Assembly: GCA_003194425.1 (NCBI GenBank)
Contig: PQXB01000001.1
Location: 199,265 to 263,264 of the forward strand
DNA: 64,000 nt
DNA from: Candidatus Methanophagaceae archaeon
GTDB taxonomy: Archaea; Halobacteriota; Syntropharchaeia; Alkanophagales; Methanospirareceae
Reading direction: 5' to 3'
In this document: one piece after another, positions 45,187-63,614 of the stretch
Layout of the letters: every line of letters starts with the position of its first letter
Numbering within the stretch: the first letter of the stretch is position 1
Notes under the pieces: model-generated
The model's input: only the letters and a program-made list of their open reading frames with translations
Told to the model about the DNA's origin: nothing
Databases searched by the model: none
Program-made: the position numbers and the translations under genes

Positions 45187-45309
45187 TCTACTGCTGCTGC
45201 TACTGCTACTGCTGCTACTGCTACTGCTACTACCACCGCCACCGCCTCCGCCACTGCTCGCACCTTGACCTTGCCGATTCATCGTCGTTAAACTTGACCT
45301 TACGCCGGC

Positions 45310-45525
45310 CTACACCGGCCAAACCCCAAAATAAATCTCCAGCCCCAAGATCACCACGCCAATAAACACGCCCACGAGCAGAACGGTCTTCGGCGACAAC
45401 CTGACAGCAGACTCCTCAACATCGTAATATCGCATTAACCCTGCAGAGGACATTAGCCCACGCTCTTCGGATTTTCCGCCCTTCCCTCCTTTCTTCGCCT
45501 TCTTCGCCGCTTTTCCTTTCGCCAT
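45310..45525 (-). CDS. Preprotein translocase subunit Sec61beta (SecG, archaeal)
   Basis: A 71-aa protein with a Lys-rich N-terminus, GLMRYYD and a single C-terminal TM helix. Confidence 0.65.
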   Translation of the reverse strand: MAKGKAAKKAKKGGKGGKSEERGLMSSAGLMRYYDVEESAVRLSPKTVLLVGVFIGVVILGLEIYFGVWPV

Positions 45526-45609
45526 ATTTCTCTCTCTATTTTACCTTCTAATAAAAAATAAACTGAAAGGAAACTGAAAGGAGATGAAAGGAAACTGAAA
45601 GGAGAAAAA

Positions 45610-47594: not shown

Positions 47595-47619
47595 CTTCTC
47601 AAACCCTTAAAACTAACCC

Positions 47620-48603: not shown

Positions 48604-48792
48604 ACACTCCTCCTCTTTCTGCTCCTCTTTCTGCTCCTCTTTCTGCTCCTCTTTCTGCTCCTCTTCTTCTCACTCTTTTTCTCACACTTTTTCTCACACC
48701 TTTATATAGAAGCAGCGTTATTGTTTTAATGTCCCTGCTTCCTCGCTCTACTGATAAAAGGGAAAAGGAGGGGGGAGAAAAGGGGCAGAAAA

Positions 48793-48819
48793 AAATTAGG
48801 AGGTGAAAACGAAAAAATG
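48793..48819 (+). promoter_or_regulatory. Second copy of the conserved leader with an extended Shine-Dalgarno
   Basis: It is identical to the 25-mer at 28031-28056. Both precede genes for signal-peptide proteins. Confidence 0.6.
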
Positions 48820-49398
48820 GATAAAAAAATAGCCGTCGCGGGAATAGCCGCAATCGCGGTCGTTGTAGTAACTCTGCTCGTCGCTCAGCCAATAATGTCG
48901 CAAGAAGAGACCGTCTCGCCGGAGATTGACGATGCGAGGATAACTGCCGTTCTCGATGAAATATTAGCAGGGCAGCAGGGCGGAGAAGTGAGCCCTTCGC
49001 TGAATGGTCTTGACAACGGACAAGCGTCCAGCACCAGCACCGACACAGCAACAGCGAACCCTTGGGTCTCCAATGTCTCTTACAGCACAGCGGTCACAAA
49101 AGTGAAGGAAAGCCGTTCTGGAAGCGAAAATATGTACTGGATGAATTACAGGCCAACCAAAGCAAACAAGCAACTGGACTTCATAATTTTGTACATGGGA
49201 AAAGGGAAATCGGTAATAGATTACGAGTGGCAGCATTTTGACTTCACCAAACTCTACCCAAGCGGATACAGCGGAGGTACATCGACACCCTTTGGTGTAA
49301 CCTACTGGGGTGGCGACCCCATAATTGGACCAGCGTATCTTGTCGTGTTTGCTGACGGCGCCTACCAAGGCTACTACGCCTTCGAAGTAGTGAAGTAA
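48817..49398 (+). CDS. Membrane-anchored secreted protein, function unknown
   Basis: MDKKIAVAGIAAIAVVVVTLLVAQP is an N-terminal TM anchor. The 25-nt leader ATTAGGAGGTGAAAACGAAAAAATG is identical to the one before the secreted protein at 28054. Confidence 0.5.
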   Translation: MDKKIAVAGIAAIAVVVVTLLVAQPIMSQEETVSPEIDDARITAVLDEILAGQQGGEVSPSLNGLDNGQASSTSTDTATANPWVSNVSYSTAVTKVKESRSGSENMYWMNYRPTKANKQLDFIILYMGKGKSVIDYEWQHFDFTKLYPSGYSGGTSTPFGVTYWGGDPIIGPAYLVVFADGAYQGYYAFEVVK

Positions 49399-49535
49399 GA
49401 CTAACAGAACCGCGACGGTTTTGTAAAGGACTAAAAAAATAGGGGGTTTTTCTTTTTTATCCCCCTCGTTTATTTTCGTTTATTTTTCTATTTTTAAACC
49501 AACCGTTACAAAACAACCGTTACAAAAGCAGACGA

Positions 49536-49610
49536 TGCTCCGGTCGGGATTTGAACCCGAGTCCTCGGCTCGAAAGGCCGAAATGATTGGCCGAGCTACA
49601 CTACCGGAGC
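49536..49610 (-). tRNA. tRNA-Glu (anticodon UUC)
   Basis: GCUCCGG acceptor stem, anticodon loop CUUUCGA, T-arm CGGGUUCAAAUCCCG. Confidence 0.8.
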
Positions 49611-49719
49611 AAAACAAAACTTTTAAGAACAAACTTAAAAAAAAGTCTGATCAAAATGCTTCGCGGTTGTTTCTTTACTAAATTTCCTTTCCAAAGAAAA
49701 GTTTCTTTTTAAGAAAAAT

Positions 49720-50073
49720 TTAGCCGAAGAGCGAAGCAAGTCCTTCCATCCCTGTCTCTTCTCCTTTTTCTTCCTCCTCCTCTTCCTTCTTCTCCTCTTT
49801 CTTCTCCGCCTTCGCCTCTTCCGTCGTCGCTGCTGGTGCTTGTGCCTGCGGTGCCTGCGCAGGAGAGGGGATTGCCGTAGCCGCAGCGTAAGCAGGCGAC
49901 TGGGCTTGTGCCATCGCCTCGTCAATGTTGACTCCGTCGAGCGCCGAAATCAGTGCCTTTACTCTCCCCTTCTCTGTTTCTATCCCCGCAGCGTCCATCA
50001 CCGCTGTTATCCCGTCCTCTGTAATCTCCTTGCCCGAGTTGTGCAAGAGCAATGCAGCATAGATATATTCCAT
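49720..50073 (-). CDS. rpl12: 50S ribosomal protein P1 (L12, stalk)
   Basis: [32 protein letters not shown]... followed by an Ala/Glu-rich hinge and C-terminal GLASLFG. Confidence 0.85.
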
Positions 50074-50190
50074 CTTCGTTCTGCCTCCTTTTTTTCGCTT
50101 TACTTTTGTTTTGCTTTCTTTTATTTTTGTTGTTTAAATAGTTAAAGAATTTCCTGCTGCGTTCCGTCGCACTTCGCTGTTCTACTTACC

Positions 50191-51555
50191 CTACACTGCG
50201 CCCTCTGCCTCTGCCTCTACCTCTGCCTCTGCCTCTACCTCTGCCTCTGCCTCTACCTCTGCTCCTGCCTCTGCGCCTGCCCCTGCTCCACGCCACTGCT
50301 CCTGAGCCTGCGTAGCGAAATTCGCCAACGCCTTCTTAAGCGCGCTCAAGCCCGAACTGCGAAGGAAAAAGCAGGGCTTGTTCCGCAGTTTGCACGCCTC
50401 CTTGACCAGCCTGCAGGCGTTGTGGCTGTTTATGTCAATCGGGCAGAAGACGACATCAATTTTTTCCACGAGATTCTCAATCCCCCTCCTCCCCCGCTCG
50501 CAGTGCCCGCAGTGGTAGCAGAAGGCGCAGCCGAAAGATTGTGCGACCTCCTCGTAGCACGACTCAAGCGACTCCACTCCGCCGACGTAAGCCACTCGCG
50601 TGTCTTTGAGATTGAGATTAAGATTGAAATTCGGCGCAACTTTACACTCGTTCACTGCCGCCGCGGGCGCCGCTGTTGGCGCGGGTTCTGAAGCGAAGAT
50701 TTTTACCAACTCCGCGTTCTCCTTGTTCAGCCGCTTCATTTCTTCTCTCAACGCCTGAATCTCTGTTCTCATCGCCCCAACCCGTTCAACCTGCTCAAAG
50801 ACCGCTTCCCCGCCCAACTTCGCCACCTTCCTCCGCAACTCCTCGCTCTCCCGCCTCTGCTCCGCCAACTCCTGAACGAGCCTGCTCTTCTCCGCTCTAA
50901 CCGCCTCTCGCTCGGAAATTAGCTCTTCCCTCTTCTGCTCCAGCCGTTTAAAATTGCGTTGCAGTTTTTCGTTTGTTTCTAAAGCCGTTCTCAGCTCCTC
51001 AACCACATTTTCCACCTTCTTTCCTCCTGGCAGCCTGCGAGAGAGTTCGTCGTAAAACCGCAGAGCCTGCTGCTCTTTTAGAGAGACCGCAGAGGAGAGC
51101 CTCGTCGCGATTTCGTTGCTCTTGTTGCTTTGCTCTTTGCCGTTTCCGTTGCGTGCCGCGTTGCGTGCCGCGTTGCGTGCCGCGAACCAGAGCAGAGCGG
51201 AGAGAGGAACTGCTCTAAACCCGTTTGCCCCGTTTTCCGTTTCAATAAACTCGCAAATTTCTTCGGGGTCTGCCCACCCGACTTCCTTCTTGTAGGGGGC
51301 GAACTTCTTTTCAAGCAGTTTTTCCACTCGCTTGGCGTGCTGGCTCGGCGTCCTGCAGACCTGCGCCAAATTCTGCTGCATTTCAAGTGCCGTTAAAAAC
51401 TGCGTGCTGCTGCTACTGCTCCTGCTGCCACCGCCGTTGCTAAGTTTCAACTCTTTAAAGACACGCTTCAGTCCTGCTTCGTCAAAGCTCAAGCCCAGGA
51501 TTTTAGAGGACATAAAAGACGGGAACTCCCAAATCCTCTTTCTCTTTGCGTTCAT
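50191..51555 (-). CDS. Coiled-coil protein with C-terminal DUF2325-like domain (uncharacterised)
   Basis: The C-terminus VAYVGGVES...HCGH...IDVVFCPIDINSHNACRLVKEACKLRNKPCFFLRSSGLSALKKAL is the DUF2325-type pattern (vGG, H.G, D.V, t/d..sH, K.a.k..kp). The central ~130 aa are heptad-rich. Repeat tails AARNAARNAARN and AEAEVEAEAE are present. Confidence 0.5.
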   Translation of the reverse strand: MNAKRKRIWEFPSFMSSKILGLSFDEAGLKRVFKELKLSNGGGSRSSSSSTQFLTALEMQQNLAQVCRTPSQHAKRVEKLLEKKFAPYKKEVGWADPEEICEFIETENGANGFRAVPLSALLWFAARNAARNAARNGNGKEQSNKSNEIATRLSSAVSLKEQQALRFYDELSRRLPGGKKVENVVEELRTALETNEKLQRNFKRLEQKREELISEREAVRAEKSRLVQELAEQRRESEELRRKVAKLGGEAVFEQVERVGAMRTEIQALREEMKRLNKENAELVKIFASEPAPTAAPAAAVNECKVAPNFNLNLNLKDTRVAYVGGVESLESCYEEVAQSFGCAFCYHCGHCERGRRGIENLVEKIDVVFCPIDINSHNACRLVKEACKLRNKPCFFLRSSGLSALKKALANFATQAQEQWRGAGAGAEAGAEVEAEAEVEAEAEVEAEAEGAV

Positions 51556-51573
51556 TTTCAGTAACCCCCCTAC

Positions 51574-51735
51574 TTACGAGGCTTGGTAAAGCTGGCAGCC
51601 CTCGAGGAACCACGAGCCTAACTCTTCTTTTATCCGCCCAATCCTTTCGTCCAAGCCGTCCAAGTCTTCCAACTCGTCCAAGTCCTCGATCTTTCTCAAC
51701 TCCTTCAACAATTTCGTTATTTCCATTTCGTTCAT
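51574..51735 (-). CDS. Small acidic protein (53 aa) immediately upstream of the DUF2325 gene, possibly co-transcribed
   Basis: Hand translation gives MNEMEITKLLKELRKIEDLDELEDLDGLDERIGRIKEELGSWFLEGCQLYQAS. It is too short for the ORF track. Confidence 0.25.
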   Translation of the reverse strand: MNEMEITKLLKELRKIEDLDELEDLDGLDERIGRIKEELGSWFLEGCQLYQAS

Positions 51736-51874
51736 TCGCTTACTCTCCTTCTTTATTTGTTTTAGGTTTTCCTAAATACATATAAAAACACATATAAAAT
51801 AAGAAAATTAGGCACACAAATAGCAACCCCTAAAAATCTTTGGTCTGTTAAAGCAAGCCCAAATAAGTTCGGTT

Positions 51875-52363
51875 TTAGTGAGAGAACCGAAGCCCTTTCC
51901 CTTTTTTTTCCCGCCGCCGCTCTCCAGGTTTGCAGGAATGCACCCCAGTCGCGCAGAAAATCTCAAAATGCTTCAGCCACTGTGGATAATCTGGCGCCGA
52001 CTGCACAAACCTTACCAAATTCTTTATCTGCTCAATCGTCTTCGCTTCCAACTCGTGCTCAATTATGCAGGCGTCTTTGTCCGCCGTCTCCTTCGGCACA
52101 TTGATAATTTCCAGAAACGCCCTTATAATTTCGTGCCGGTCCCTCACAATTTCTGCTATTTCTTTTCCCTTTGGTGTTAAGGTAACGCCGTCGTACTTGC
52201 GATAAATAACGAGACTCTTGTCGTCCAGTTTCTTTGCCATTTCTACAGCGCTCGCAGGCGTAACGCTCAAAGCTCGTGCAATGTCCCTTATCCTCGCGTA
52301 GCCCTTCTGCTCCGAGATGTTCAGAATCGCCTCGAGGTAGTCCTCCGCTTTTCTTGTCAGCAT
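51875..52363 (-). CDS. DtxR/MntR-family metal-dependent transcriptional repressor
   Basis: TRKAEDYLEAILNISEQKGYARIRDIARALSVTPASAVEMAKKLDDKSLV is the HTH plus metal-site pattern of the DtxR family. Confidence 0.8.
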   Translation of the reverse strand: MLTRKAEDYLEAILNISEQKGYARIRDIARALSVTPASAVEMAKKLDDKSLVIYRKYDGVTLTPKGKEIAEIVRDRHEIIRAFLEIINVPKETADKDACIIEHELEAKTIEQIKNLVRFVQSAPDYPQWLKHFEIFCATGVHSCKPGERRREKKGKGLRFSH

Positions 52364-52491
52364 ACCTAATATTGTTAGGGTAGCCCTTATTTAAATTTTC
52401 AATTTGAACTTCAAAGATTGTTACCGCTTTGACTTAGAATTATTGTCGAAAACGACAATTATTTAAAGATAAATTTATTTTAAAATTAAAA

Positions 52492-55400
52492 ATGAAAAAA
52501 ATAGGAAAATTATCGGTTGTTAGTGTTCTTTGCGCGTTTGTTTTTGTGAGTGTCCTGCTACTAACTGCAGCAGTGCCAGCGTCGGCAACTTCGTCGGCAA
52601 CTTCGTCGGCAACTTACCCGACGCTTCAGTACGACGCACAGCGAACTGGGAACGTGGGCGGTGCTGCACCAGAAACCGCCTCTCTGCTGTGGCAGTCGGG
52701 CGAGAAGACCGCAGGCTGCGTGCAAGCAGGTCCGGTTGTCTTGGACGGCAGGGTCTTTTTCACTACTTGGTGGTCGGGAGGAATGGGAGTTGAGGGGAAC
52801 GCCAGCGACGCTCTCTACTGCCTCGACGAGGAGACGGGTGAGGAGGTTTGGAACAACACCGCAGTCTTCGGCGCTTCTACTGCGGCGGTCGCAGCGGCAG
52901 AAGGGAAGTTGTTTGTGGGCACGCACCGCGGGAATTTCACTTGCGTTGACACCACGAGTGGCGAGATTTTGTGGAGCAGGCGGGTAGAAGAGAACCCGTC
53001 GTGGTACGGAGTTGGATCTTCTCCGCTCGTCTTTGACGGGACGGTCTTTGTGCTAACCTTCTCGGACGGCACGCTGCACGCCTTCTCTTTCGAGGGTGCA
53101 GAACTCTGGAACTTCTCCACAGGTGAGGAAATATTTAAGTACGCGTCGCCCTCCGCTTACGAGGACAAAATCTTCTTCGCAGGCAACTCCACAGCGGCCG
53201 CGGGGCAGCACGGACGGCACGCCTTGTACTGCCTTAACTTGAGCACGCACGAGGAGGAGTGGAATTTCACGACTGACACAGAGGTCCGGGGGACGCCTAC
53301 GATTTGGAGCGAAGGAGGGGAAGGCGGGCTGGTCTTCTTTACCACGAAATATGTCTTTGGAAAGGAGTACGGGATTTACGCGCTTAACGCAACCACAGGC
53401 GAGGAGGTTTGGTACAAAAAACACAAATCCAGCTGGGCTTCGCCTGCGGTGAGCAACGGACGGCTCTACATCGGCGGTTCTTCTGTCGACACCACTTTCT
53501 ACTGCTACGACGCGAGGGACGGCACGCTAATTTGGGAGAACGAGGAAATGGGCGGAGCGGTAGATTCGTCGCCTGTGGTCGCCGACGGCAAGGTCTATTT
53601 TGGCGAGAGCAAGGTCAACGGAACGGTCTACTGTTTAGACGCTGAGAACGGTTCGGTGCTTTGGAACTACACTCTCTACATTCCGCCGGGCTTCGGTGGA
53701 GGCTTCAACTCGGCTTCGCCCCCCGCGGTTGCAGACGGCACACTCTTTGTCGGGGTAGACAACGTGGGCGTTCTCGCGTTCCGAGACCCTCTCCTCCCAG
53801 ACCCACTCTTTTGGGAAGGCGAGGTGACGCTAACCGAGAACGCAACGACCACAGTTACCGCGCACGACAGCGGTGCGAGCTACGAAATTAACCAAACGAC
53901 CGCACTCGGAGCGCTCGCCGCAGCGGCAGCCGCAGGCGGGTTCAACTACACCGTGAGCGACAAGTGGTACGCGAGCTGGGGTTCACTGCTCGTGGATTCG
54001 ATCGCGGGAAAGTGGAACGACCCGGTCACTTGGGACGGCTGGCTGTACTGGGTGAACTACCCGGACGACCCGATGCCTGGGGTTGGTCCGAACAAATACG
54101 AAGTGGAAGACGGCGACCTCGTGACCTTTTACTACGGTGGAATGAGCGCGACGCCCGAGAACACCCCGATGCTACTGCGGATTCGTGTTCGTGTCACCGG
54201 TGCGAGCGTAGTTCAATGGAACAGCGTGACCAAAGACGACGCCACTAATTTTTCAGTGGAAGTCGGGTTAGACGAGAGCGAGGAGGTGGAGTTCCGCGTC
54301 TCCTCGGACTCTGGCGCAGGCACGGCTTACGAGTGGTCGTGGTCAGTGAACGGAGCGGAGACAAAAAAATCTGAAGGAGAAAGCACAAATTTATCGTTTG
54401 TCTTTGAAGAATACGGCATTTACAATGTCAGCGTCGTGGGAGTAGGAGTAGGTGAGGCAGAAAATGAAACTGTGTCTGCGACTTGGAATGTCTCGATCTG
54501 GCTGGTAGTAGGAGAAGAGAACGACGCTTGTGAACTGGAGGGGCTTGAGGAGTACCAGCTGCGGTTTTTAAAGCGACCCGAGCGGCTGGTTTCGATGGCG
54601 CCGAGTTGCACCGAGATTTTATTCGCGGTGGGTGCAGGCGAGAGCGTTGTCGGCGTTACCGAGTTCTGCGACTACCCGCCAGAAGTGAAAGAGAAGAAGG
54701 AGAGCGGGGAGATTGCAGTAATCGGGGGGTATTCAACTCCGAATTTTGAGAAAATCGTGGATTTGGAGCCGGATTTGGTCGTTGGTGCTCACGGCAACCC
54801 TGCTGGTGTGATTTATTACCTGCTGGAGTCGGAATATCCGGTTTACGCGATGCATCCAAAAAGCATTGACGAGATTTTTGCACACATAAAAGTCGCAGGC
54901 GCGGTAACGAGCTGCGATGAAAACGCGTCTTCGCTCTTGGAAAATTTGAGTGAGCGGCTGGAGACTGTGAAGGAGAAGACGGAGCTGTTAGAAGAGGAGC
55001 AGAAGCCGAGAGTGTTTTACAACATCGGCGACTTCTTTACCGCGGGCAAGGAGACATTTGCAGACGAGATAATTGAAATCGCAGGCGGCAAAAACATCGC
55101 GGCTGCAGACGGCAAGACAGGATATTTTATAATGAGCCTTGAGGAGCTCATTGAAAAGAATCCGCAGGTAATCCTCTGCGACAGCGGAATGGGCGAGATG
55201 AGTTTTGCGTACGAGCAAATAATGAACGACGAGCGGCTGAAGAATGTGAGTGCTGTGAAGAATAATCGGGTTTATGTAATCGACGGAGATATAATATCAA
55301 GACCAGGTCCGAGGGTGGTAGACGGGGTGGAAGCGGTTCATCAGAATTTCAGTGATTTTTTCGCCGCTAACACCCAAGAGTGCGAACTGAAAATTTCCAC

Positions 55401-55803
55401 CGACAAACTCAACTACAGCCCCAACGAGACGATGAATGTCGCTCTACGCATCTCAAACCCAACTAACAGCACGCTAACATTCAACTGGTTTGCAGGGATT
55501 CCGCAGTTCGAGTTCTGGACGCACCTTTACTCAACGCCGATTTCCCCAGGCTTTAACCAGTCTCTCAATACGACACTACAAGTGGGCGACTGGGGTGCGA
55601 CGCCTTTCGGTCTCGTGTTTTACGTGGACTTGCAGGAGCCAGAGACACTTCAGCCGCTAACCGCGGATGTTTGGTGGTGCCTGTATTCGCCTGGCGAGGC
55701 AGGAGTAGGAGAAGGAGTGCCAGAAAGCATAGAAAATATCGGAGATTTCGTTCTCTTGAATGTTTTACATAAAACTTCACATCACCAAAAACCTCTCTCG
55801 TGA
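52492..55803 (+). CDS. Large secreted fusion protein: signal peptide, PQQ-like beta-propeller repeats, a middle region, a BtuF/FhuD-type binding-protein domain (cobalamin or iron-siderophore) and a C-terminal domain. The last ~20 codons run into an AT-rich element and may not be real.
   Basis: The N-terminus has a signal peptide and repeated LYCLDxxTGEEVW / VYCLDAENGSVLW motifs (PQQ/BamB-like). Residues about 690-960 read RLVSMAPSCTEILFAVGAGESVVGVTEFCDYP...PDLVVG...NPQVILCDSGMGEMS...RVYVIDGDIISRPGPRVVDGVEAV, a typical class III periplasmic binding protein. Confidence 0.7.
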   Translation: MKKIGKLSVVSVLCAFVFVSVLLLTAAVPASATSSATSSATYPTLQYDAQRTGNVGGAAPETASLLWQSGEKTAGCVQAGPVVLDGRVFFTTWWSGGMGVEGNASDALYCLDEETGEEVWNNTAVFGASTAAVAAAEGKLFVGTHRGNFTCVDTTSGEILWSRRVEENPSWYGVGSSPLVFDGTVFVLTFSDGTLHAFSFEGAELWNFSTGEEIFKYASPSAYEDKIFFAGNSTAAAGQHGRHALYCLNLSTHEEEWNFTTDTEVRGTPTIWSEGGEGGLVFFTTKYVFGKEYGIYALNATTGEEVWYKKHKSSWASPAVSNGRLYIGGSSVDTTFYCYDARDGTLIWENEEMGGAVDSSPVVADGKVYFGESKVNGTVYCLDAENGSVLWNYTLYIPPGFGGGFNSASPPAVADGTLFVGVDNVGVLAFRDPLLPDPLFWEGEVTLTENATTTVTAHDSGASYEINQTTALGALAAAAAAGGFNYTVSDKWYASWGSLLVDSIAGKWNDPVTWDGWLYWVNYPDDPMPGVGPNKYEVEDGDLVTFYYGGMSATPENTPMLLRIRVRVTGASVVQWNSVTKDDATNFSVEVGLDESEEVEFRVSSDSGAGTAYEWSWSVNGAETKKSEGESTNLSFVFEEYGIYNVSVVGVGVGEAENETVSATWNVSIWLVVGEENDACELEGLEEYQLRFLKRPERLVSMAPSCTEILFAVGAGESVVGVTEFCDYPPEVKEKKESGEIAVIGGYSTPNFEKIVDLEPDLVVGAHGNPAGVIYYLLESEYPVYAMHPKSIDEIFAHIKVAGAVTSCDENASSLLENLSERLETVKEKTELLEEEQKPRVFYNIGDFFTAGKETFADEIIEIAGGKNIAAADGKTGYFIMSLEELIEKNPQVILCDSGMGEMSFAYEQIMNDERLKNVSAVKNNRVYVIDGDIISRPGPRVVDGVEAVHQNFSDFFAANTQECELKISTDKLNYSPNETMNVALRISNPTNSTLTFNWFAGIPQFEFWTHLYSTPISPGFNQSLNTTLQVGDWGATPFGLVFYVDLQEPETLQPLTADVWWCLYSPGEAGVGEGVPESIENIGDFVLLNVLHKTSHHQKPLS

Positions 55804-56212
55804 GAGATTGAAACCTCTCCGCCAATTTTTGTGAATGCGTTGTGTAGTGAACTCTCCATCTCGCATCTATTCCACCATCAAAAAGCAAATGACCAAAAAA
55901 TTCCATAAGGTCTCCATTTATAGAAATCCTCATTTTTGGATTCCTTATTTCATCACTCGCCTTTTCTGTTTTGATGAGTTGGATGCCAGATTCGAGTTCC
56001 AACCCAACATCGTTGCAAATATTGTTCAACACTTTTAGCGGATAATTGTTCTTCGCTTCTTTCCATTTGTACAGTTGTCGTTGTGAGAGGTTGAACTGTT
56101 TAGCGACATTTTTTACAGTGCCATATTTCACTAACAGCTGTCTCCACAATTTTTCTCTTAATCTCTCAGTAGGCATTGCATAAATCCCGTCCATCTGAAT
56201 TTGCACCTTCAT
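55565..56212 (-). CDS. HTH-domain protein, possibly a degenerate LAGLIDADG-type homing endonuclease or transposase fragment, in an AT-rich element abutting the 23S break. Only roughly the first 165 aa (to about 55720) lie in the AT-rich element. The rest is read-through antisense to the upstream gene.
   Basis: It has its own SD (AAGGTG, 4 nt, ATG). The N-terminal LWRQLLVKYGTVKNVAKQFNLSQRQLYKWKE is an HTH. GHLLFDGGIDA loosely resembles a LAGLIDADG motif. Confidence 0.35.
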   Translation of the reverse strand: MKVQIQMDGIYAMPTERLREKLWRQLLVKYGTVKNVAKQFNLSQRQLYKWKEAKNNYPLKVLNNICNDVGLELESGIQLIKTEKASDEIRNPKMRISINGDLMEFFGHLLFDGGIDARWRVHYTTHSQKLAERFQSLTREVFGDVKFYVKHSRERNLRYFLCFLALLLLLLPRQANTGTTKHPRLAAEVSLAPASPRKTRDRKASHPSRPLVVSY

Positions 56213-56642
56213 TTTACACCTTCGTTTCTGTCCTTTGTTTTTATTAAAATGCTACCGCTTGGATTTCTGACCCACCTGAGTCAACCTTAGGGCGCCCTCG
56301 ATATTTTTTCAAGGGCATGGCGCCCCACCTGAACAGCCCACCTACCGGTGTTCTCTCGCGTCAAGCAAGAGTAAGGGTCACAACTTCGGAAGGGTAGTGT
56401 TCCATTGGCGGCTCTGTGCCTCCTGGCGAAGGCACTTCACTGCCTCCTACCTACGCTCTACATCCGAAGTCGTAGCTCAACGGCAGACTGCTGTAAAACT
56501 CCACGGGGTCTTCGCTTCCCCTTGGGGGTCCCCGGTCTTTTCGCCGGGACGATGATTTCGCCGGTTTCCAGCTAGGGACAGTGGAAGGCTCATTCCTTCT
56601 TTCGTGCAAGCCGCCAATTAAGCGGCTAGGTACTACGCTACC

Positions 56643-56807
56643 TTTCTCCCCTCCTCCGCTGCTGAGTGCCTTACTTCTGCTTAGCTTGCCTTAAATTCGC
56701 TTAGCTTTGCTTCTGCTTGGCTATTTTATAGGAGGTAAAAAAGCAATGAAAAACGAAAAGAAAAAGGGTTCTTTTCTCAAATTCGTGCTTAGTAGCAGAA
56801 GAGGAGG
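56643..56807 (-). other. Small 23S rRNA intron (about 165 nt) at roughly E. coli position 1927, just 5' of the conserved GGTAGCG
   Basis: An AT-rich, low-complexity insertion interrupts ...GTAACTCTGACCCTCTTAA | GGTAGCGTAGTACC. The intron termini are mutually complementary (CCTCCTCTTCTGC ... GCAGAAG..GGAGG), consistent with a bulge-helix-bulge substrate. Boundaries are accurate to about 3 nt. Confidence 0.55.
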
Positions 56808-57352
56808 TTAAGAGGGTCAGAGTTACCCCCGCCGTTTATAGGTCCTTCAACCCCTTGAAAAGGGCTTTCAGATACCTACACTGGGCAGGAGTCAGTGACC
56901 GTACTAACCCTTACGGGCTTGCGGTCACCTGTGTTGTTATTAGACAGTTAGCCTTCCCTTGTCACTGCGACCTGCCTCTCGCAAGGCAGGCACTCCTTCT
57001 CCCGAAGTTACAGAGCGATTTTGCCGATTTCCCTTAGCTGGATTTCCCCGACACGCCTGAGCCTTCTCAGCTAGGGGCACCTGTGTCGGTTCTCGGTACG
57101 AACGACCAGCCGCCTTTTTCACGGGCTCCTGGGCTTGACTGACTTCCTTGCGGAAGCCTTAACACATTCGCCCGCTTCTCGCCGTTACGGCTCTCCACGG
57201 GCTTCGGTGCTTGGACAGTGCGATGACACTGCTCAATCTACCCAGAAGCGTCAGGTGTCCTGTCCTCGCGGACGGACGTAGGCTGGACGGCGCAGGAATA
57301 TTAACCTGCTTCCCATTTGATGTGCTCCAGTTGGGACACATCTTAGGATCGG

Positions 57353-57383
<31 letters not shown>

Positions 57384-58629
57384 AACCTAGCCCCTTCGGC
57401 GGTCGGGATTCTCACCCGACTTTGCTGCTACTATCGCCAGGATTCTCGTTTCTGCCCGGTCCACACCTTCTCACGAAGATGCTTCCGCCCAAGCAGAACG
57501 CCCCTCTACCGGATCTCCCGCCTTAAGCAGGAGCCCTGGGGTCTCGGTGGTCGGCTTGAGTCCCTTCCATTTTCGATGCTACAGACCTCGGCTGGTGAGC
57601 TATTACGCTTTCCTTAGAGGGTAGCTGCTTCTAAGCTAACCTCCCAGCTGTTTGTGGTCTGCAACGCTCTTTAGTGTTAACACTTAGCCGACACTTGGGG
57701 ACCTTAACCTCAGTCTGGGTTATTTCCCTCGCGGACTGGGAGCTTACCCCCCAGCCCGGACTCCGACCTTCTACAACGATGGCGCCTTCGGAGTTTGACA
57801 GGAGGGCGAGGTCTTTCGACCCCGGGTCCTCCAATCGGTAGCTCTACAACGTCATCAATCTCCAGTCGGGTCATACTTTGGTATGTTTCGAGGGGAACCA
57901 GCTATCGCCGGGTTTGATTGGCCTTTTACCACTAAACGCAGGTCATCCGAGAGATTTGCAAGTCATCACCGGTTCGGCCCTCCATCCTCCTTTCGGAGAA
58001 CTTCAGCCTGCCCACGCTTAGATCACCCGGCTTCGGGTCATATTCCAATGACTCCACGCAGTTCGTACGTCGTTCCTCTCCCTACCTTCCTTTCGAAAAG
58101 ATGCGGATGCGAACTTGTTGGTTACCCTGCGGCTCCCCTTTTTCAGGTTAGCCTCGCCACTGAAATATACTCCCTGGCCCGTTCTCCAGAACGTACGATG
58201 CGACCCTGTTCCAGAACCCTCGTACTCACCCCTCGCGGGATTTTCCTTCGGACCCCTTCGTCACTTTCAAGCCGCATCACTCTATCACCATTTAATTTCA
58301 GGCTCTTTTCACCTCCTTATTTGGGGTACTTTTCAGCTTTCCCTCACGGTACTATTCCGCTATCGGTCTCAAGACGTGTTTAGTTTTGGAGGTTGGTAGC
58401 CCCCAGATTCCCGCAGGAAATTCAACCTACGGTACTCAAGTAAAGAGTCAAGCCCTCTGCCTTACGCCTACGAGGTTTTCACTCTCTTTGGCGCCGCGTT
58501 CCAGCGGACTTCGGCTTCAACAGGTCGGGCTTACACGACCCCCACTTACAACACCACATCTCCCTTCCCTTTCGAGAGGGATTCGGTTTGAACTCCGCCG
58601 TTTTCACTCGCCGTTACTCACGGCATCTC

Positions 58630-58741
58630 AAACCCCTTTCTTAAAACATTTTCTTAAAAAAAAAATCTTTACCAAAAGAACCAAAAGATTCTTTCCGTAA
58701 AGGCTTTCTTCTAAAGAAAGGCTTTTAAGAAAGGGTTTATT
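58630..58741 (-). other. Small 23S rRNA intron (about 110 nt) near E. coli position ~222 (between AGAAATCAA and GAGATGCCGTGAGTA)
   Basis: An A/T-rich palindromic insertion has complementary termini (AACCCCTTTCTTAAAA ... TTTTAAGAAAGGGTTT). Flanking sequences are conserved 23S domain I. Boundaries are approximate. Confidence 0.5.
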
Positions 58742-59125
58742 GATTTCTCTTCCTGCTCCTACTAAGATGTTTCAATTCAGAGCGTTCCCAATCCCACTAC
58801 TAACGCAGCAGGACCGACCCCGAAGGGTCAAGAGTTCCCATTAGGGCATCCTCGGTTCAAAGGCTCCTTGTACCTACCCGAGGCTTCTCGCAACTTGGCA
58901 CGCCCCTCTTCAGCGCTTGAGCCGAGCCATTCATTAAATGGCATAAATACCAGCATTTCACCTCTCCCAAGCTCATTAAATGTCAGAGTTGCAAAGTGCG
59001 TGTGACGACTTCACCTGGCAGAACGAGACAGTGCAACCTTAACTCACTGCACTGCCCTCTGCCATCAGTCCTTCGCTGAACGACAACCCGTGTCGTCAGG
59101 TGCATTTTTTCCTTTCCACCAAGAG

Positions 59126-59198
59126 TGGACTCGCTGGGATTTGAACCCAGGGCCTTCGCCTCGCAAAGGCGACGATCTTCCAACTGATCTACGAGCCC
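59126..59198 (-). tRNA. tRNA-Ala (anticodon UGC) in the 16S-23S spacer
   Basis: GGGCUCG acceptor stem with a G3-U70 pair, anticodon loop UUUGCGA, T-arm CUGGGUUCAAAUCCCAG. Confidence 0.8.
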
Positions 59199-59360
59199 CG
59201 TTCCGTTCTCTACCCAGCCACTTATTTGATTTATTCTAACTTAAACTTACTTTACTAAGTTTAGTTTTACTTTACCTAACCCGACGCTCTTTCAGTTCTG
59301 ACTGGTAAGAAAAAATTAGGAGGTGATCCAGCCGCAGATTCCTCTACGGCTACCTTGTTC

Positions 59361-60096
59361 ACGCGGTTCCCCATGTCGCCATGAGGCGTGGACTATATCA
59401 CCATCTCAAGGACTTGCTTCTTTCTGGGATGATTCGAGCCGATCAAATATGCAAAATCCCTGTAGGATTCACATCGGACAAAGAATCTCCAGTAGCACGG
59501 GTCATTTTTCTTACTCGGGTTGTGGATTTTTCCGCATTTTATCCCAAGCTCGGTAAGAAACGAACATACTTCTTCAAGGTCTTTCTTATCCTTTTGTGCG
59601 AAGTAAATGTACATTCGTGCACCCGGCTTCTTCGGAACACTACCTTCTGCATCGAAGTATCCACGAACGTAGTCTATTTTGTTCTGTCGAGTCTCGATTT
59701 TTGCATCGCGCAAAATAAATTTGGAGAACTCGACAACATAGACATTTCGCGATTTTCCTTCGCGGTAAATCCACGCATTGTATCCCATTTTACGAATCAT
59801 CGCTGTGATGAAGTAGATGAATGATTCATCGTTCTGGGTAACACGATATGTGTATTTCCGCTCAGTTGCATCATGCAGTATTCCTATGAGATAGGCTTTC
59901 GTCATCCCTTCTTTACCTTGAGAGCTCGGCGTGTAGTCTCTGAGGGGTCAAGAACCTAAACAAAAAAAGAAAAGGTTCCGACTTCCCTGCTGATTGACCC
60001 CACCCAACCCGTTGCCAGGTTGGGATACACGGGTGTTTCCAGCATATAGCCAAGTTTTTCCCAATCCCTCGCGGGAAAGGGGTCGCAACTTTCTTA
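59361..60096 (-). mobile_element. 16S rRNA intron (about 735 nt) at roughly E. coli position 1499/1500, within the universal AAGTCGTAA|CAAGGTAGCC, carrying a homing-endonuclease ORF
   Basis: The conserved 3'-terminal motif is split: ...GGGGGCTAAGTCGTAA [insertion] AACAAGGTAGCCGTAGAGG.... The insertion is AT-richer than the exons and contains the LAGLIDADG ORF. Boundaries are accurate to about 2 nt. Confidence 0.75.
59393..59905 (-). CDS. LAGLIDADG-family homing endonuclease (double-motif, intron-encoded)
   Basis: Motif 1 is KAYLIGILHDATE and motif 2 is VRGYFDAEGSV, the canonical LAGLIDADG/GFFDAEGS motifs. The 170-aa ORF lies entirely inside the 16S intron. Confidence 0.8.
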   Translation of the reverse strand: MTKAYLIGILHDATERKYTYRVTQNDESFIYFITAMIRKMGYNAWIYREGKSRNVYVVEFSKFILRDAKIETRQNKIDYVRGYFDAEGSVPKKPGARMYIYFAQKDKKDLEEVCSFLTELGIKCGKIHNPSKKNDPCYWRFFVRCESYRDFAYLIGSNHPRKKQVLEMVI

Positions 60097-60173
60097 CGAC
60101 TTAGCCCCCCTTGCGAGACTTAGGTTCGAACGCGTCAAGAAACGCGGCCTCACCTAAACCCCACTCGGCTGGC

Positions 60174-60214
<41 letters not shown>

Positions 60215-60627
60215 CCCCATTTTGAGGGGCGATTACTACGGATTCCTCGTTCACGAGGGCGAGTTGCAGCCCTCGATCCCAACCAGGAGCAGCTTTAGGG
60301 GATTACCTTCCCCTTTCGGGGTCGTTACCCATTGTACTGCCCATTGTAGCACGCGTGTAGCCCGGAAGATTCGGGGCGTACTGACCTACCGTGGCCCGCT
60401 TCTTCCTCCACCTTAGCGGCGGCAGTCCTCGCAGAGTGCCCATCTTCCTTGCGGAAATGCTGGCAACTGCGAGTGCGGGTCTCGCCCGTTGCCTGACTTA
60501 ACAGGATGCTTCACAACACGAACTGCCGACGGCCATGCGCCACCTCTCAGCTAATCCAGTAAGGTCTTCAGCCTGACCTTCATCTCGCTGTCCCCTCCGG
60601 TGAGTTTTCCGGCGTTGAATCCAATTG

Positions 60628-60678
<51 letters not shown>

Positions 60679-60792
60679 GCTGCCACCGCTCGCTCTCGCC
60701 TCTCTCCCTGTTTTTCAAAAAAATGTTGAAAGAAAAAAAAGAAAAAAGAAAAGTAGGGAATTAGGATTTTGGGTTGAGCGAGTGCTGGTTTC
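60679..60792 (-). other. Small 16S rRNA intron (about 112 nt) at roughly E. coli position 908 (GGCTGAAAC|TTAAAGGAATTGGCGG)
   Basis: An A-rich insertion with complementary ends (CCGCTCGCTC ... GAGCGAGTG) interrupts the universally conserved 907-926 region. Confidence 0.6.
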
Positions 60793-60910
60793 AGCCTTGC
60801 GACCGTACTCCCCAGATGGCGGGCTTAACGGCTTCCCTTCGGCGCTGACATCGCTCGCAGCAATGCCAACACCCAGCCCGCATCGTTTACAGCCAGGACT
60901 ACCCGGGTTT

Positions 60911-61110
60911 TTAGTGAGAAGGGAGAAAACATTTGAGTTTGATGACTTTGTCCGGATGAATAATCTTCACTTACTGTCACTCTTAGACTTACTGTCAAAG
61001 ACTTACTGACAACCTTAACGATCTTGGTGTAAGTCTTCAAGAACGATTCTACTCTGCGTTCCAATTTCACATTGGCATCATCCATTTGTTTTGTTTTCTC
61101 CCTCACTCAT
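60911..61110 (-). other. Small 16S rRNA intron (about 200 nt) at roughly E. coli position 793/794 (GGATTAGAT|ACCCGGGTAGTCC)
   Basis: The insertion splits the universal 785-805 motif. The termini form an inverted repeat (AGTGAGAAGGGAGAAAACA ... TGTTTTCTCCCTCACT). Internal CTTACTG(T/A)CA tandem units are present. Confidence 0.6.
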
Positions 61111-61352
61111 ATCTAATCCGGTTCGCGACCCTGGCCTTCGTCCCTCACCGTCGGACCCGGTCTGGTCAGACGCCTTCGCTGCCGGTGGTCCCCCAAGGAT
61201 TAAAAGATTTCACCCCTACCCCTGGAGTACCTCTGACCTCTCCCGGTCCCAAGCCGAGCAGTATTCCCTGAACGCCTGACCGTTAAGCGGTCAAATTTCC
61301 CAAGGAACTTACCCAGCCGGCTACGGACGCTTTAGACCCAATAAACGTGGCT

Positions 61353-61397
<45 letters not shown>

Positions 61398-62079
61398 ACC
61401 CAGCCCTTCCTTCAGGTGCTCTTTAGACACCTGAACAGCCTCCGTTGGAGGCACTCAGAGTTCCCTTATCGCGCTTCCGCGCATTGTAAAGTTTTCGCGC
61501 CTGATGCGTCCCGTAGGACCTGGGTTCTTCTCTCAGAACCCATCTCCGGGCTATTGCTCTCACAACCCGTACCGATCGTCGGCTTGTTAATCCGTTACAT
61601 TAACAACGACCTAATCGGCCGCAGACCTATCCTTGGGCGCCCCGCCTCTCGACGCGGCTTTCGAGCATCGCGCATTCCAGCTGCCGATGCCCTATCCGGT
61701 ATTAGCCCCAGTTTCCCAGGGGTTGTCCCAGACCCAAGGGCAAGTTGTCCACGTGTTACTGAGCCGTCCGCCGGGTTACCTCGCATTCTTCTCCCGAAGG
61801 AGAAAAAAGGAGGCACCCACGACTAACATGGCTTAATCGAACTCTGATGGCAGTAGCCTCTGGCAGGATCAACCAGTATTGAACTGCAGGGTTTCACAAC
61901 ACATTGCACACACTTCTCTGCACTTACCTACCTTCTACACTGTTTCTTACTCACCAATCAGATTTACTGGCTCGTCAGATTAGGCTTACGTCGGACACGA
62001 ACCTGCTTTCTTTCGCGGCCCCACTTTTTTTGCAGCGCAGCGGAAGTCAATTCCGCTTGCTACAAATACACATTTAATC

Positions 62080-62098
62080 TGTCTCTATAAAAACCTTC
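62080..62098 (-). promoter_or_regulatory. Putative rRNA operon promoter (archaeal TATA box)
   Basis: The minus-strand reads GAAGGTTTTTATAGAGAC about 200 nt upstream of the 16S 5' end. Confidence 0.4.
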
Positions 62099-62105
62099 AA
62101 TTTTT

Positions 62106-63614
62106 TTATCGTGATTTTATCCTGAATATCCGCTCTCGTGCCTTCTTTTCCAACTCGTCCGCGGAGATCCCTATTTTTGCTGCGCCCTGCCCCTGCGCGG
62201 TCATCCCCACCGCGACCGCCTCGCGCACGTACATCTCGCTCTCGTCCATTCCGGGAATTATGTAGCCCTCGCTTAACCCTTTCCCCTTCCCTTCTTCCTC
62301 CGCGTACTTCGCGATTGCGTTCGCCGCCGCGAGGCACATCTCGTCTGTTATGCATGTGGCACGCACATCTAGAGCGCCCCTAAAGACCGCAGGGAAGCCC
62401 AGAGAATTATTTACTTGATTCTCGAAGTCGCTCCTCCCGGTGGCAACAATCCTCGCCCCCGCCTCCTTCGCTTCCCCGGGCCAAATCTCTGGCACCGGAT
62501 TCGCACACGCAAAGACAACCGCGTCGTCCGCCATTCCCTCCACCCACTCCTTTTTTATCACGCCCGGACCCGGCGTCGAGAGCGCGACGCAAACATCCGC
62601 CCCGCGCATCGCCTCTTTAATTCCTCCGCTTCTACCTTCTTTGTTCGTCTTCTCGCAGATTTCCCACTTGCTCTTGTCCCCGCTCTCTCCACTCTCTCCA
62701 CTCTCTCCACTCTCTCCGCTCTCTCCCGCTCTCTCCCCAGCTCTCTCCTCCCCTCTCCCTCGCACGTCCTCTCTCTCCCGGTTCAAGATCCCGCGGCTGT
62801 CCACCACTACCAAATTTCCCCACTTCGCCCCCGCAACGCGCAAGTATTTCGCGACGCAAATATTCGCCGCACCCGCGCCGACCAGCGCAACAGTCACCTC
62901 GCTCAGCCGCTTCCCCACCACTTTCAACGCGTTCAGCAGCCCTGCGAGAATTACCAACGCCGTCCCCTGCTGGTCGTCGTGCCAAACCGGCACCCCCAAC
63001 TCAGGCAACTCCGCCTGCAGCCGCTCCAGAATGTAGTAGCACTTCGGACTCTCAATGTCTTCCAAATTCACGCCCCCAAACCCGGGCGACAGCCACTTCA
63101 CCGCGTTTATTATCTCCTCCGCATCTGTCGTCGCCAAGCAAAGCGGGAACGCGTCCACGCCGCCCAAATATTTGAAGAGCATTGCTTTGCCCTCCATCAC
63201 AGGAAGCGCCGCCTCCGGTCCCACATTTCCCAGCCCCAGCACCCGCGTCCCGTCGGTAACAATCGCCACCGAATTGCCCTTGTTCGTGTACTCAAAGACC
63301 CTCTCTCTGCTGTTTTTTATCGCACGGCTCGGCACCGCCACTCCCGGCGTGTACCAGACTGCGAAATCGTCGTAGCTCTGAACCGGCGCCTTCAGCCCGA
63401 TTTCGATTTTCCCTCTGTATTGAGCGTGGCGTTCTAAAGCGAGCTCTTCGGGCTCGGACTTGTTTGGCGCCACTAACGACTCTTTCTTCACCTCTCCCTT
63501 CTCCTTCTTCTCTTGTCTCCTCTTGATAATTACTCTTGTCTCTTCTTGGTCTTGATAAACTTTCCTCTCTTCTTGGGAATTCTTTTTAATCTCTAATAAG
63601 AGAGAAAATATCAA
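62106..63614 (-). CDS. NAD(P)-dependent malic enzyme. The true start is probably downstream of the AT-rich N-terminal extension.
   Basis: DDFAVWYTPGVA, AIVTDGTRVLGLGNVGPEAALPVMEGKAMLFK and GAGAANICVAKYL are malic-enzyme signatures. It contains a 12-bp x5 in-frame repeat encoding GESGESGESGESGESG. Confidence 0.85.
   Translation of the reverse strand: MIFSLLLEIKKNSQEERKVYQDQEETRVIIKRRQEKKEKGEVKKESLVAPNKSEPEELALERHAQYRGKIEIGLKAPVQSYDDFAVWYTPGVAVPSRAIKNSRERVFEYTNKGNSVAIVTDGTRVLGLGNVGPEAALPVMEGKAMLFKYLGGVDAFPLCLATTDAEEIINAVKWLSPGFGGVNLEDIESPKCYYILERLQAELPELGVPVWHDDQQGTALVILAGLLNALKVVGKRLSEVTVALVGAGAANICVAKYLRVAGAKWGNLVVVDSRGILNREREDVRGRGEERAGERAGESGESGESGESGESGDKSKWEICEKTNKEGRSGGIKEAMRGADVCVALSTPGPGVIKKEWVEGMADDAVVFACANPVPEIWPGEAKEAGARIVATGRSDFENQVNNSLGFPAVFRGALDVRATCITDEMCLAAANAIAKYAEEEGKGKGLSEGYIIPGMDESEMYVREAVAVGMTAQGQGAAKIGISADELEKKARERIFRIKSR
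62681..62745. repeat. In-frame tandem repeat, 12-bp unit x about 5, inside the malic enzyme gene
   Basis: The plus strand reads CTCTCTCCACT... It encodes (GESG)n on the minus strand. Confidence 0.9.

Follow-up and report, generated by a model that had tools for sequence, protein, structure and literature searches.

A BHB intron and a private 3.6-kb omission, most likely an assembly error, at the interrupted 23S rRNA gene of an ANME-1 archaeon

An archaeal rRNA operon was found by Rfam search on the minus strand of the 64,000-nt stretch of DNA analysed here (the window, GC 52.4%). Its 23S rRNA gene stops short at the edge of an AT-rich element, beyond which an unrelated protein gene begins. 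Where is the 3' end of the gene, and is the interruption a property of the organism or of its published sequence? The initial annotation offered four answers: an ORF-carrying intron or mobile insertion that truncated the gene, a naturally fragmented 23S rRNA, a decaying copy of the operon, or a chimeric assembly junction.

A BHB intron at the end of the 23S rRNA sequence

The Rfam model LSU_rRNA_archaea (model positions 16-2403) matches the 5' 80% of the 23S rRNA gene at 56265-58943 on the minus strand. The match is firm to about model position 2403, roughly E. coli 2300-2310, and is followed by low-probability filler. According to the alignment with intron-less relatives and the bulge-helix-bulge (BHB) fold described below, the 23S sequence ends with base 56265 and the intron begins with base 56264, which refines an end correctly put at ~56260 (~E. 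coli 2300) in the initial annotation. The absence of the 3' part from the 64 kb was confirmed as well: the window holds no further LSU match, CCCGGGGATAAC and the 3' arm of the intron have zero matches in it, and the sarcin-ricin motif has just one chance-level match with two mismatches. The missing piece, estimated before at ~600 nt, measures 580 nt in the colinear relative L021. Weak Rfam matches to CRISPR-DR21, mir-BART1 and Cobalamin in the region are far under threshold and were disregarded.

The AT-rich stretch of ~500 bp noted next to the gene is real by composition, with a GC content of 0.38-0.41 over 55700-56300 compared to 0.55-0.6 in the flanks. Composition and the match to contig L001, of which positions 1-2220 correspond to window positions 57983-55756 with 99.2% identity before L001 continues, identify it as the remnant of an AT-rich BHB intron (504 of 931 nt; 55761-56264, minus strand). 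Intact copies of the intron are 931 nt long, and in L001 and L021-L027 the rest of the 23S sequence follows them immediately.

The 5' strand of the BHB splicing motif lies at 56251-56276 (minus strand), while its partner strand is absent from the window. It consists of GGUGGG (outer helix), UCAG (central 4-bp helix), AAA (3-nt bulge) and UCCAAGCGGUAGC (inner helix), with the 5' splice site, 56265/56264, within the AAA bulge. In intact copies this 26-nt strand, which includes the 5' splice site, is paired with the 3' end of the intron and the start of exon 2: in the minimum free energy fold of L001, GGUGGG-UCAG-[AAA]-UCCAAGCGGUAGC is paired with GCUGCCGUUUGGA-CUGA-[AUA]-UCCACC, resulting in two 3-nt bulges on opposite strands with a 4-bp helix between them and further helices on either side. 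In agreement with the fold, 11 intron-less relatives (GTDB genomes) join exactly at the predicted bulges, L001 1711/2643; their alignment to L001 extends to 1716 and restarts at 2643, and the 5-nt overlap ATCCA sets the join. L020 and L017 have homologous endonuclease genes at this position of the 23S gene, with UUAG/CUAA in place of UCAG/CUGA in the central helix and with inner helices that are unrelated in sequence and still pair; these compensatory changes concern three sequences only and were judged by eye and with duplexfold. The intron site is a hairpin loop in domain V of the 23S rRNA. The spliced exon junction is predicted to read ...GGGUCAGAA joined to AUCCACCGUAGAG and the junction of the circular intron ...GGACUGAAU joined to AUCCAAGCGG; the presumed intron-less target sequence in the 23S gene is GGTGGGTCAGAAATCCACCGTAGAG.

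Together, the data show that the insert at 56265/56264 is an ordinary archaeal intron of the BHB type, carrying a LAGLIDADG homing-endonuclease gene. From what is established for this intron class, the BHB motif would be the substrate for the archaeal tRNA-splicing endonuclease, after which a ligase would join the exons. An ORF-carrying intron had been among the initial proposals, and for the boundary between 23S and AT-rich sequence it was the correct one, as the BHB fold and the intron-less joins demonstrate. The loss of the 3' end of the 23S gene is due not to the intron but to a separate junction 504 nt further on.

Two other identities of the insert were considered and rejected. A group I intron would need a ribozyme core, and the Rfam model Intron_gpI, at E<=1, matches neither 55400-56640 nor L001; moreover, the endonuclease ORF takes up 879 of the 931 intron nt (L001 1764-2642). 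For an IS element or transposon, as suggested by the initial annotation, there is just a sub-threshold match to HTH_Tnp_1 (18.7 bits, cutoff 24.1), and the ends of the insert coincide with the BHB splice sites and with the intron-less alleles.

The operon is rich in such elements. The 23S gene contains two ORF-less mini-introns (58632-58738 and 56645-56807, minus strand), the limits of which were taken from the intron-less relatives L006-L016, and a group I intron is located in the operon at 59360-60084. Overall, the rRNA operon of the window carries five BHB-type inserts and one group I intron, two of the six with LAGLIDADG genes, and the presence of the introns differs between strains that are 97-99% identical.

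A halved endonuclease gene and the breakpoint

The ORF of the intron starts with an ATG at 56212, preceded by AAGGTG-TAAA, in line with the SD sequence and start (AAGGTG-N4-ATG) described initially. BLASTP against P0001 and alignment A3 assign 55761-56212 (minus strand) to the first 150 codons of a gene for a 300-aa double-motif LAGLIDADG homing endonuclease. P0001 (300 aa) is 89% identical to the window ORF over 168 aa in BLASTP, with ~97% identity over residues 1-150 and divergence beyond. In Pfam, P0001 matches LAGLIDADG_3 with 29.1 bits, above the cutoff of 22.5, whereas the partial ORF of the window reaches 14.1 bits on the LAGLIDADG profile, which is under the cutoff. Two motifs are kept in alignment A3, E-F-x-G-H-L-L-x-D-G-G-I-D and A-A-Y-x-C-D-G, and in the PDB its profile matches LAGLIDADG-type endonuclease domains of the intein-containing V-ATPase chains 7qsu and 7qss (E=4.7e-5, 180 residues); a phmmer search of the PDB with P0001 gave marginal matches only. 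Among the GTDB species representatives no relative of the endonuclease was found. The piece in the window includes the first motif, EFFGHLLFDGGID, and an HTH-like region at the N-terminus, but has lost the second motif. What had been taken for an HTH protein is hence a LAGLIDADG homing endonuclease reduced to its N-terminal half, and all HTH matches remain below the Pfam thresholds. Because it stops at residue 150 with the first motif only, the copy in the window, as judged from its sequence, cannot be active. The 300-aa product of an intact gene presumably cuts intron-less 23S alleles, thereby spreading the intron.

Beyond residue 150, where the homology to P0001 ends, the 215-aa ORF of the window continues into a meaningless tail (55565-55760, minus strand), which is antisense to the neighbouring gene and matches a plus-strand gene of L002. 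A three-way alignment sets the breakpoint between 55760 and 55761: the left side is native to 55760 and is matched by L002-L005 and L021, the right side is native from 55761 and is matched by L001 and L021-L024. The breakpoint lies in the middle of the endonuclease gene, which is here fused to a plus-strand gene for a surface protein; the lower boundary of the element had been put at ~55735, somewhat too far to the left. The only similarity between the two sides at the breakpoint is TTGA(A/C), with a mismatch beside the junction. The native boundary sequences are ...CTCTTGAAAAATGAATGA and ...AAAACAGTCAAAGCGG; on the left side the native boundary reads ...GTTCTCTTGAAAAATGAATGA and in the endonuclease gene ...TATGTAAAACAGTCAAAGCGGAAG.

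The surface-protein gene (52492-55760, plus strand) encodes a secreted PQQ-like beta-propeller and periplasmic-binding protein (Pfam PQQ_2, Peripla_BP_2). Its final three codons are lost, and 55761-55803 adds a spurious 14-residue tail and a stop codon; the native end, ...FVLLKNE followed by the stop codon, is found in L002-L005 and in P0147. The BtuF/FhuD-type domain recognised initially exists but does not adjoin the element: Peripla_BP_2 covers residues 700-932 of the 1103-aa protein, and it is the C-terminal domain that is directly left of the junction.

The missing 3,613 nt and the cause of the omission

L021, a 140-kb contig roughly 97% identical to the window, is colinear with window positions 42513-55760 and 55756-62816, and between the two blocks it has 3,613 nt that the window lacks. 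These hold the 3' 422 nt of the intron, the last 580 nt of the 23S gene, including the peptidyl-transferase and sarcin-ricin regions, a tRNA-Cys gene and small toxin-antitoxin-like genes over ~2.4 kb; the skipped stretch also takes in the final three codons of the converging gene for the surface protein. The L021 locus has a complete 23S gene and an intact endonuclease gene, and its operon is flanked as in the window, by a malic-enzyme gene upstream and the surface-protein gene downstream. L004 has its tRNA-Cys gene 2 kb downstream of the left gene and contains a spacer resembling the 23S-tRNA-Cys spacer of the relatives.

The unbroken form was found in all native-type contigs examined: all five that cover the left side (L002-L005, L021) and all seven that cover the right side, with one contig spanning both. 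For the right side, L001 and L021-L024 were aligned, while L025-L027 were assessed by their intact 298-aa gene. A metagenome scan with a 25-mer of the left flank yielded three contigs, all with the native form. The protein with the fused tail, P0139, corresponds to one public record only, PXF51094.1 from a 1.19-Mb contig; of the other 13 members of its cluster, 12 are either complete or truncated at contig ends, and one of them, P0147, shows the native tail.

Several ways of producing the junction are not compatible with its geometry. A chimera or end-to-end joining of unrelated contigs was rejected, as L021 has both sides 3.6 kb apart in the same orientation. Of the chimeric assembly junction proposed initially, the assembly part is retained, since the junction acts like an assembly-level omission, while the joining of unrelated loci is not, because the sides are neighbours in L021. 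The flanks have kept their orientation, which makes this a deletion-type junction; an inversion would have flipped one side. A circularisation read from the 5-kb mate-pair library would give a duplication-type order, the opposite of the one observed. A graph mis-join at a repeat was also rejected, with TTGA(A/C) as the only shared sequence.

A 23S rRNA naturally split within the intron, with two transcripts that pair through the 23-bp BHB duplex, are cut and possibly ligated in trans, is hardly credible for this locus. The 5' strand of the BHB is intact (56251-56276) and could in principle pair in trans with a transcript of the 3' arm. However, the second piece was not found in the window, the junction is of the deletion and not the inversion type, and the gene is contiguous in close relatives. 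Since tRNA-Cys and unrelated protein genes lie in the missing block, too, the block would have to have moved as a whole, and tRNA-Cys is reported to be absent from the whole draft (PMC5947290). The fragmented 23S suggested initially is therefore disfavoured.

The published draft bears on the copy number of the operon and on the history of the record. The G37 ANME-1a draft comprises 1.40 Mb in five scaffolds with a GC content of 52%, one 16S and one 23S rRNA gene (Krukenberg et al. 2018, PMC5947290, Table 1). Its sole missing tRNA is that for Cys, a strain heterogeneity of 50% is given, and the assembly combined SPAdes 3.5.0, 5-kb mate pairs and a bin-targeted re-assembly (Krukenberg et al. 2018, PMC5947290). 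Because the identical 1103-aa protein, the GC content and the missing tRNA-Cys agree, the window and PXF51094.1 most likely belong to this genome, on circumstantial grounds; the G37 enrichment reads are those of BioProject PRJNA418316. The tRNA-Cys gene of the skipped block was found neither elsewhere in the window nor in the published draft.

The rRNA operons of several relatives, of L021 and of the window lie within contigs of 15-75 kb or longer, which suggests that the operon is present in a single copy. A decaying, truncated and non-functional second operon, next to an intact one elsewhere in the genome, is very improbable. Other organisms are known to have truncated rRNA copies, but here the same locus with the same flanking genes is a complete operon in L021, and the operons of relatives inside long short-read contigs are as expected for single-copy genes. 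Furthermore, the remnant shows only 18 differing alignment columns to L001 over 2,228 nt: 12 in a variable hairpin (57259-57275), one elsewhere in the 23S sequence, four in the endonuclease gene and one at base 55760. The 23S exons thus differ at one variable hairpin and one base over ~1,500 nt, and the published draft lists one 16S and one 23S gene (PMC5947290). An old pseudogene was rejected, as the remnant has no excess of substitutions relative to L001, and the decaying operon copy of the initial annotation is likewise disfavoured, given the few differences to an intact copy and its orthology to the complete L021 operon.

As the junction is private to one record and would delete tRNA-Cys and, from what is probably the single copy of the 23S rRNA gene, the essential 3' part, we conclude that it is not the working state of the organism's chromosome. 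Most likely, the 3.6-kb omission is an assembly artefact or a rare dead-end allele. With a probability of about 0.8, the locus combines a real intron with a private 3.6-kb omission that most likely arose as a metagenome-assembly error, and a complete, spliced 23S rRNA is expected in the cell. Such an error would have arisen in a population whose introns vary between strains and in which a gene island is variable; chimeric reads, or rare molecules that carry the deletion, may have given rise to it.

Some observations argue against an assembly error. A de Bruijn-graph assembler cannot invent a junction, so some reads, chimeric or genuine, carried it, and real deletion-bearing molecules may exist. 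No repeat is long enough for a graph mis-join, TTGA(A/C) alone being common to both sides, and the window contains no N run, which a scaffold gap would leave. The left breakpoint spares the neighbouring gene except for three codons, as a tolerated natural deletion would. These points lead to the rival of a genuine 3.6-kb deletion allele in part of the culture DNA, in dead-end mutants or in some chromosome copies of polyploid cells that also retain intact ones, which appears unlikely. The assembler would then have taken the simple path, the wild-type path being tangled by strain-variable introns and the variable gene island. A simple deletion suffices to join the two sides, which are true neighbours in the same orientation; the junction k-mers must have occurred in the reads, the left gene is nearly intact, and the strain heterogeneity of 50% (PMC5947290) fits with such an allele. 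The similarity of four out of five nt at the junction could reflect microhomology-mediated joining, but the microhomology is imperfect at the junction and a 4-of-5 match, with a chance expectation of ~0.016, is not compelling. The allele is in no other assembly of the species, and it cannot be fixed, as it lacks tRNA-Cys and, in what is probably the single copy of the 23S gene, the essential 3' part.

Relation to known systems

For curation, a widely used ANME-1 draft appears to have a seamless 3.6-kb omission that cuts the 23S gene and deletes tRNA-Cys, which explains the missing tRNA of the publication. The omission creates two false fusion ORFs, the 215-aa ORF and the 1103-aa PXF51094.1, and matters to users of the record in rRNA phylogeny, probe design, tRNA inventories and intron surveys. 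Local mis-assemblies and omissions at rRNA operons occur in metagenome-assembled genomes. The present case resembles these in its strain-variable inserts, the adjoining variable gene island, its restriction to one assembly and the removal of essential genes; unlike usual graph mis-joins, it is seamless, with neither Ns nor a long repeat, which implies junction-bearing reads. If the junction were real in molecules, it would illustrate how a polyploid or mixed population can carry a lethal deletion; no result obtained here calls for this.

Split tRNA genes that are joined through a BHB formed in trans are known from Nanoarchaeum equitans and Caldivirga maquilingensis, and a split 23S gene, if true, would be their rRNA counterpart. 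Under this hypothetical reading only, the likeness lies in a BHB duplex long enough for two separate transcripts; unlike in split tRNA genes, there is no sign of a separately encoded 3' piece, and the gene is contiguous in relatives.

Group I introns in archaeal rRNA genes are a subject of Nawrocki, Jones and Eddy 2018 (PMC6125680). The window itself carries one, at 59360-60084. In contrast, the endonuclease-bearing 23S intron has a canonical BHB instead of a group I core.

Closer to the latter are the archaeal rRNA BHB introns with LAGLIDADG enzymes, such as I-DmoI in the 23S gene of Desulfurococcus mobilis and I-PorI and I-ApeI of Pyrobaculum and Aeropyrum; 16S introns of Thermoproteales are reportedly the subject of a published paper. 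Nothing specific on rRNA introns of ANME-1 was found in the literature search. The intron described here differs from the known examples in its host, a methane-oxidising euryarchaeal ANME-1 (Methanophagales) and not a crenarchaeote, in an extra N-terminal HTH-like region, in an ORF that ends 24 nt inside exon 2, and in that the window's copy is cut in half. Its insertion site, placed at 2403/2404 on the archaeal LSU model (~E. coli 2300-2310), may differ as well. With the known introns it shares the location in a conserved rRNA loop, the BHB at the exon-intron junctions, the lack of a ribozyme core, an ORF that nearly fills the intron, a monomeric double-motif enzyme and a patchy occurrence among close relatives. 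ANME-1 rRNA operons can thus be densely populated by mobile introns, a modest extension of archaeal intron biology, and the intron in the window is of a known kind.

The end of the 23S rRNA gene

According to Rfam models, the minus strand of the window carries an archaeal rRNA operon with a 16S gene (60074-61879), tRNA-Ala (59125-59198) and a truncated 23S gene running from 58943 downwards; the neighbouring proteins have their homologues in ANME-1 / Methanophagales. Alignment of the 23S is reliable to about position 2403 of the archaeal LSU model and then continues as low-probability filler. Rfam and motif searches of the 64-kb window found no second 23S fragment, the PTC-proximal motif CCCGGGGATAAC and the intron 3' arm had zero matches, and the sarcin-ricin motif had a chance-level match only. 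Hence, the initial annotation was correct in describing a 23S gene whose 3' part is absent from the 64 kb.

The gene had been described as abutting an AT-rich element that encodes an HTH protein. Residues 1-150 of the 215-aa ORF in this element (56212-55565, minus strand) are ~97% identical to P0001, an intact LAGLIDADG homing endonuclease of 300 aa, and the similarity ends after residue 150. P0001 scores above the Pfam LAGLIDADG_3 threshold, two LAGLIDADG motifs are conserved in the alignment of the endonuclease family, and the profile of this alignment matches intein endonuclease domains in the PDB. The ORF and its boundary with the 23S gene are confirmed. The HTH matches are sub-threshold and located in an N-terminal extension; the supposed HTH protein is the N-terminal half of a homing endonuclease.

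The contig carrying P0001 (L001, 2,824 nt) is 99.2% identical to window positions 57983-55756; past this match it reads through the remainder of the ORF and then directly into 23S sequence as far as GGGGATAAC. Folding of L001 yields a textbook bulge-helix-bulge (BHB) motif, GGUGGG-UCAG-[AAA]-UCCAAGCGGUAGC paired with GCUGCCGUUUGGA-CUGA-[AUA]-UCCACC, which defines splice sites at 1711|1712 and 2642|2643 of L001 and an intron of 931 nt. The 5' splice site corresponds to 56265|56264 in the window. All 11 related-species genomes retrieved by the exon-2 pattern lack the intron and are joined exactly at the predicted splice sites. Two other archaeal 23S genes (L020 and L017) carry homologous endonuclease genes at the identical site; their BHB helices differ in sequence with the pairing kept, the central helix UCAG/CUGA becoming UUAG/CUAA. 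A group I core was not detected in this 23S intron. The boundary between 23S and AT-rich sequence is that of an intron. The stop codon of the endonuclease ORF lies, a little unusually, 24 nt inside 23S exon 2 (L001 2643-2666; the equivalent part is lost from the window). If the excised intron is circularised, the frame would instead read across the ligation site and terminate after 7 codons (…GLN-IQAVAF*).

The breakpoint and the skipped segment

The real break sits apart from the 23S/intron boundary, at 55760|55761. The window departs from L001 between 55761 and 55756, and the contigs matching the plus-strand 1103-aa gene at 97-99% (L002 from ENA, L003-L005 from three JGI metagenomes, and L021 from an NCBI MAG) all match the window through 55760. 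Beyond it they read AAATGAATGA, with the native end of the gene three codons later (...FVLLKNE*). Together, these matches fix the junction exactly and replace the lower element boundary of ~55735 proposed initially. Only TTGA(A/C) is common to both sides.

L021, a 22-kb excerpt of a 140-kb contig that is ~97% identical to the window, aligns with window positions 42513-54199, 55388-55760, 55756-59359 and 60085-62816 with order and orientation kept; its second and third blocks are separated by 3,613 nt not in the window. This segment carries tRNA-Cys (L021 14514-14586; Rfam and ARAGORN) and the final 580 nt of a 23S gene that is complete in L021 (14717-18890; Rfam). The endonuclease gene also has its intact 3' half there, and six small ORFs of toxin-antitoxin-like type are present. 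In the independent contig L004, tRNA-Cys lies 2 kb past the left gene, with a spacer like the 23S-tRNA-Cys spacer of other Methanophagales, and the order malic enzyme - 16S - tRNA-Ala - 23S - tRNA-Cys is kept in relatives. The two sides of the junction are natural neighbours. An inversion is ruled out by the orientation of both sides.

The 2.4-kb stretch between the surface-protein gene and tRNA-Cys, which is missing from the window, is a strain-variable island adjoining a tRNA gene. It holds small HicA/HicB-like and DUF5678 genes and differs among strains by indels and replaced segments (L002 3131-5147; L021 12106-14462; L005 beyond 6267). The surface protein itself, a PQQ beta-propeller protein, contains an in-frame cassette of 1,188 nt (54200-55387, plus strand) with an Ig-like module and Peripla_BP_2, which is replaced by 24 nt in L002-L005 and L021 and kept in an independent ENA contig (encoding P0147). 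The cassette is a strain-level gain or loss of domains in a secreted protein of metal- or cobalamin-binding type.

Origin of the 3.6-kb loss

Several observations speak against the loss being a fixed and functional state. It takes away the peptidyl-transferase part of 23S and the tRNA-Cys gene, and no other tRNA-Cys was found in the 64-kb window. The contigs in which the operon is embedded measure 15-75 kb or more in several relatives, in L021 and in the window; a single-copy operon would be expected to assemble this way, which suggests that there is one copy. The initial annotation had offered a decaying operon copy as one of four explanations; the 23S/intron remnant is not decaying, its differences from L001 being confined to a single variable hairpin, one further base, four positions of the endonuclease gene and the junction-adjacent base. 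The native-type contigs examined are unbroken on the left side (5/5) and the right side (7/7; L021 in both counts). The fused tail was found on one contig only, of 1,187,124 nt, in a protein identical to the window ORF (P0139; PXF51094.1, locus tag C4B55_01360); P0147 shares the strain-specific domain cassette of P0139, yet has the native tail.

The properties of the PXF51094.1 record fit the G37 ANME-1a draft, which comprises 1.40 Mb in 5 scaffolds with a GC content of 52% (Krukenberg et al. 2018, PMC5947290); that of the window is 52.4%. Table 1 of that paper gives one 23S and, as the sole missing tRNA, Cys. Assembly of the draft relied on SPAdes 3.5.0 and 5-kb mate pairs, and the binned reads were re-assembled; the population had a 'strain heterogeneity' of 50% (PMC5947290). 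Such bin-targeted re-assembly could lose the reads of an unbinned 3.6-kb block and keep a rare read bridging the binned flanks. The junction is seamless, with no Ns and no long repeat. As a graph assembler requires reads carrying the junction, it was seeded either by chimeric reads or by a real minority of deletion-bearing molecules. Mate-pair circularisation as the source of the read was rejected, as it would yield the opposite topology. A 23S that is truly split and processed in trans, one form of the naturally fragmented gene proposed initially, would require the entire block including tRNA-Cys to have relocated and is very improbable. Most likely, the living genome does not have this 3.6-kb truncation. 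The initial interpretation was partly right, as two of its proposals apply, an intron and a probable assembly-level junction. The result is chiefly of value for correcting a reference ANME-1 genome.

Other inserts and comparison with known introns

Near its 3' end the 16S gene contains an insert of 725 nt (59360-60084, minus strand) that scores 54.5 bits against the Rfam model for group I introns and holds a 170-aa single-motif LAGLIDADG ORF (59393-59905; LAGLIDADG_3, E=1e-16). It is present in contigs L022-L027, and absent from L021 and every GTDB relative. Four ORF-less inserts on the minus strand, in 23S (56645-56807, 163 nt; 58632-58738, 107 nt) and 16S (60679-60787, 109 nt; 60909-61109, 201 nt), occur in 0/11 related species, yet L021, at 97% identity, has them; each is predicted to fold with a long terminal helix, resembling mini BHB introns. 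In L022 (ENA ERZ27227320 k141_1026242, 1365-7185) identity to the window is 98% across the 23S with all its introns and only 89% across the 5' half of 16S, and the locus has other flanking genes (MlrC-like, Cdc6, RadA), a pattern reflecting either rRNA/intron exchange among ANME-1 species or a metagenome contig that is chimeric. Elsewhere, an Rfam tRNA match spans 109 nt (25526-25634, minus strand) where ARAGORN calls no tRNA, and is probably an intron-containing tRNA gene.

The 23S intron with its LAGLIDADG gene is a fresh example of a well-known class of elements. The group I match in 16S implies that group I and BHB-type introns coexist in one ANME-1 rRNA operon, a coexistence described for other archaea (Nawrocki et al. 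2018, PMC6125680).
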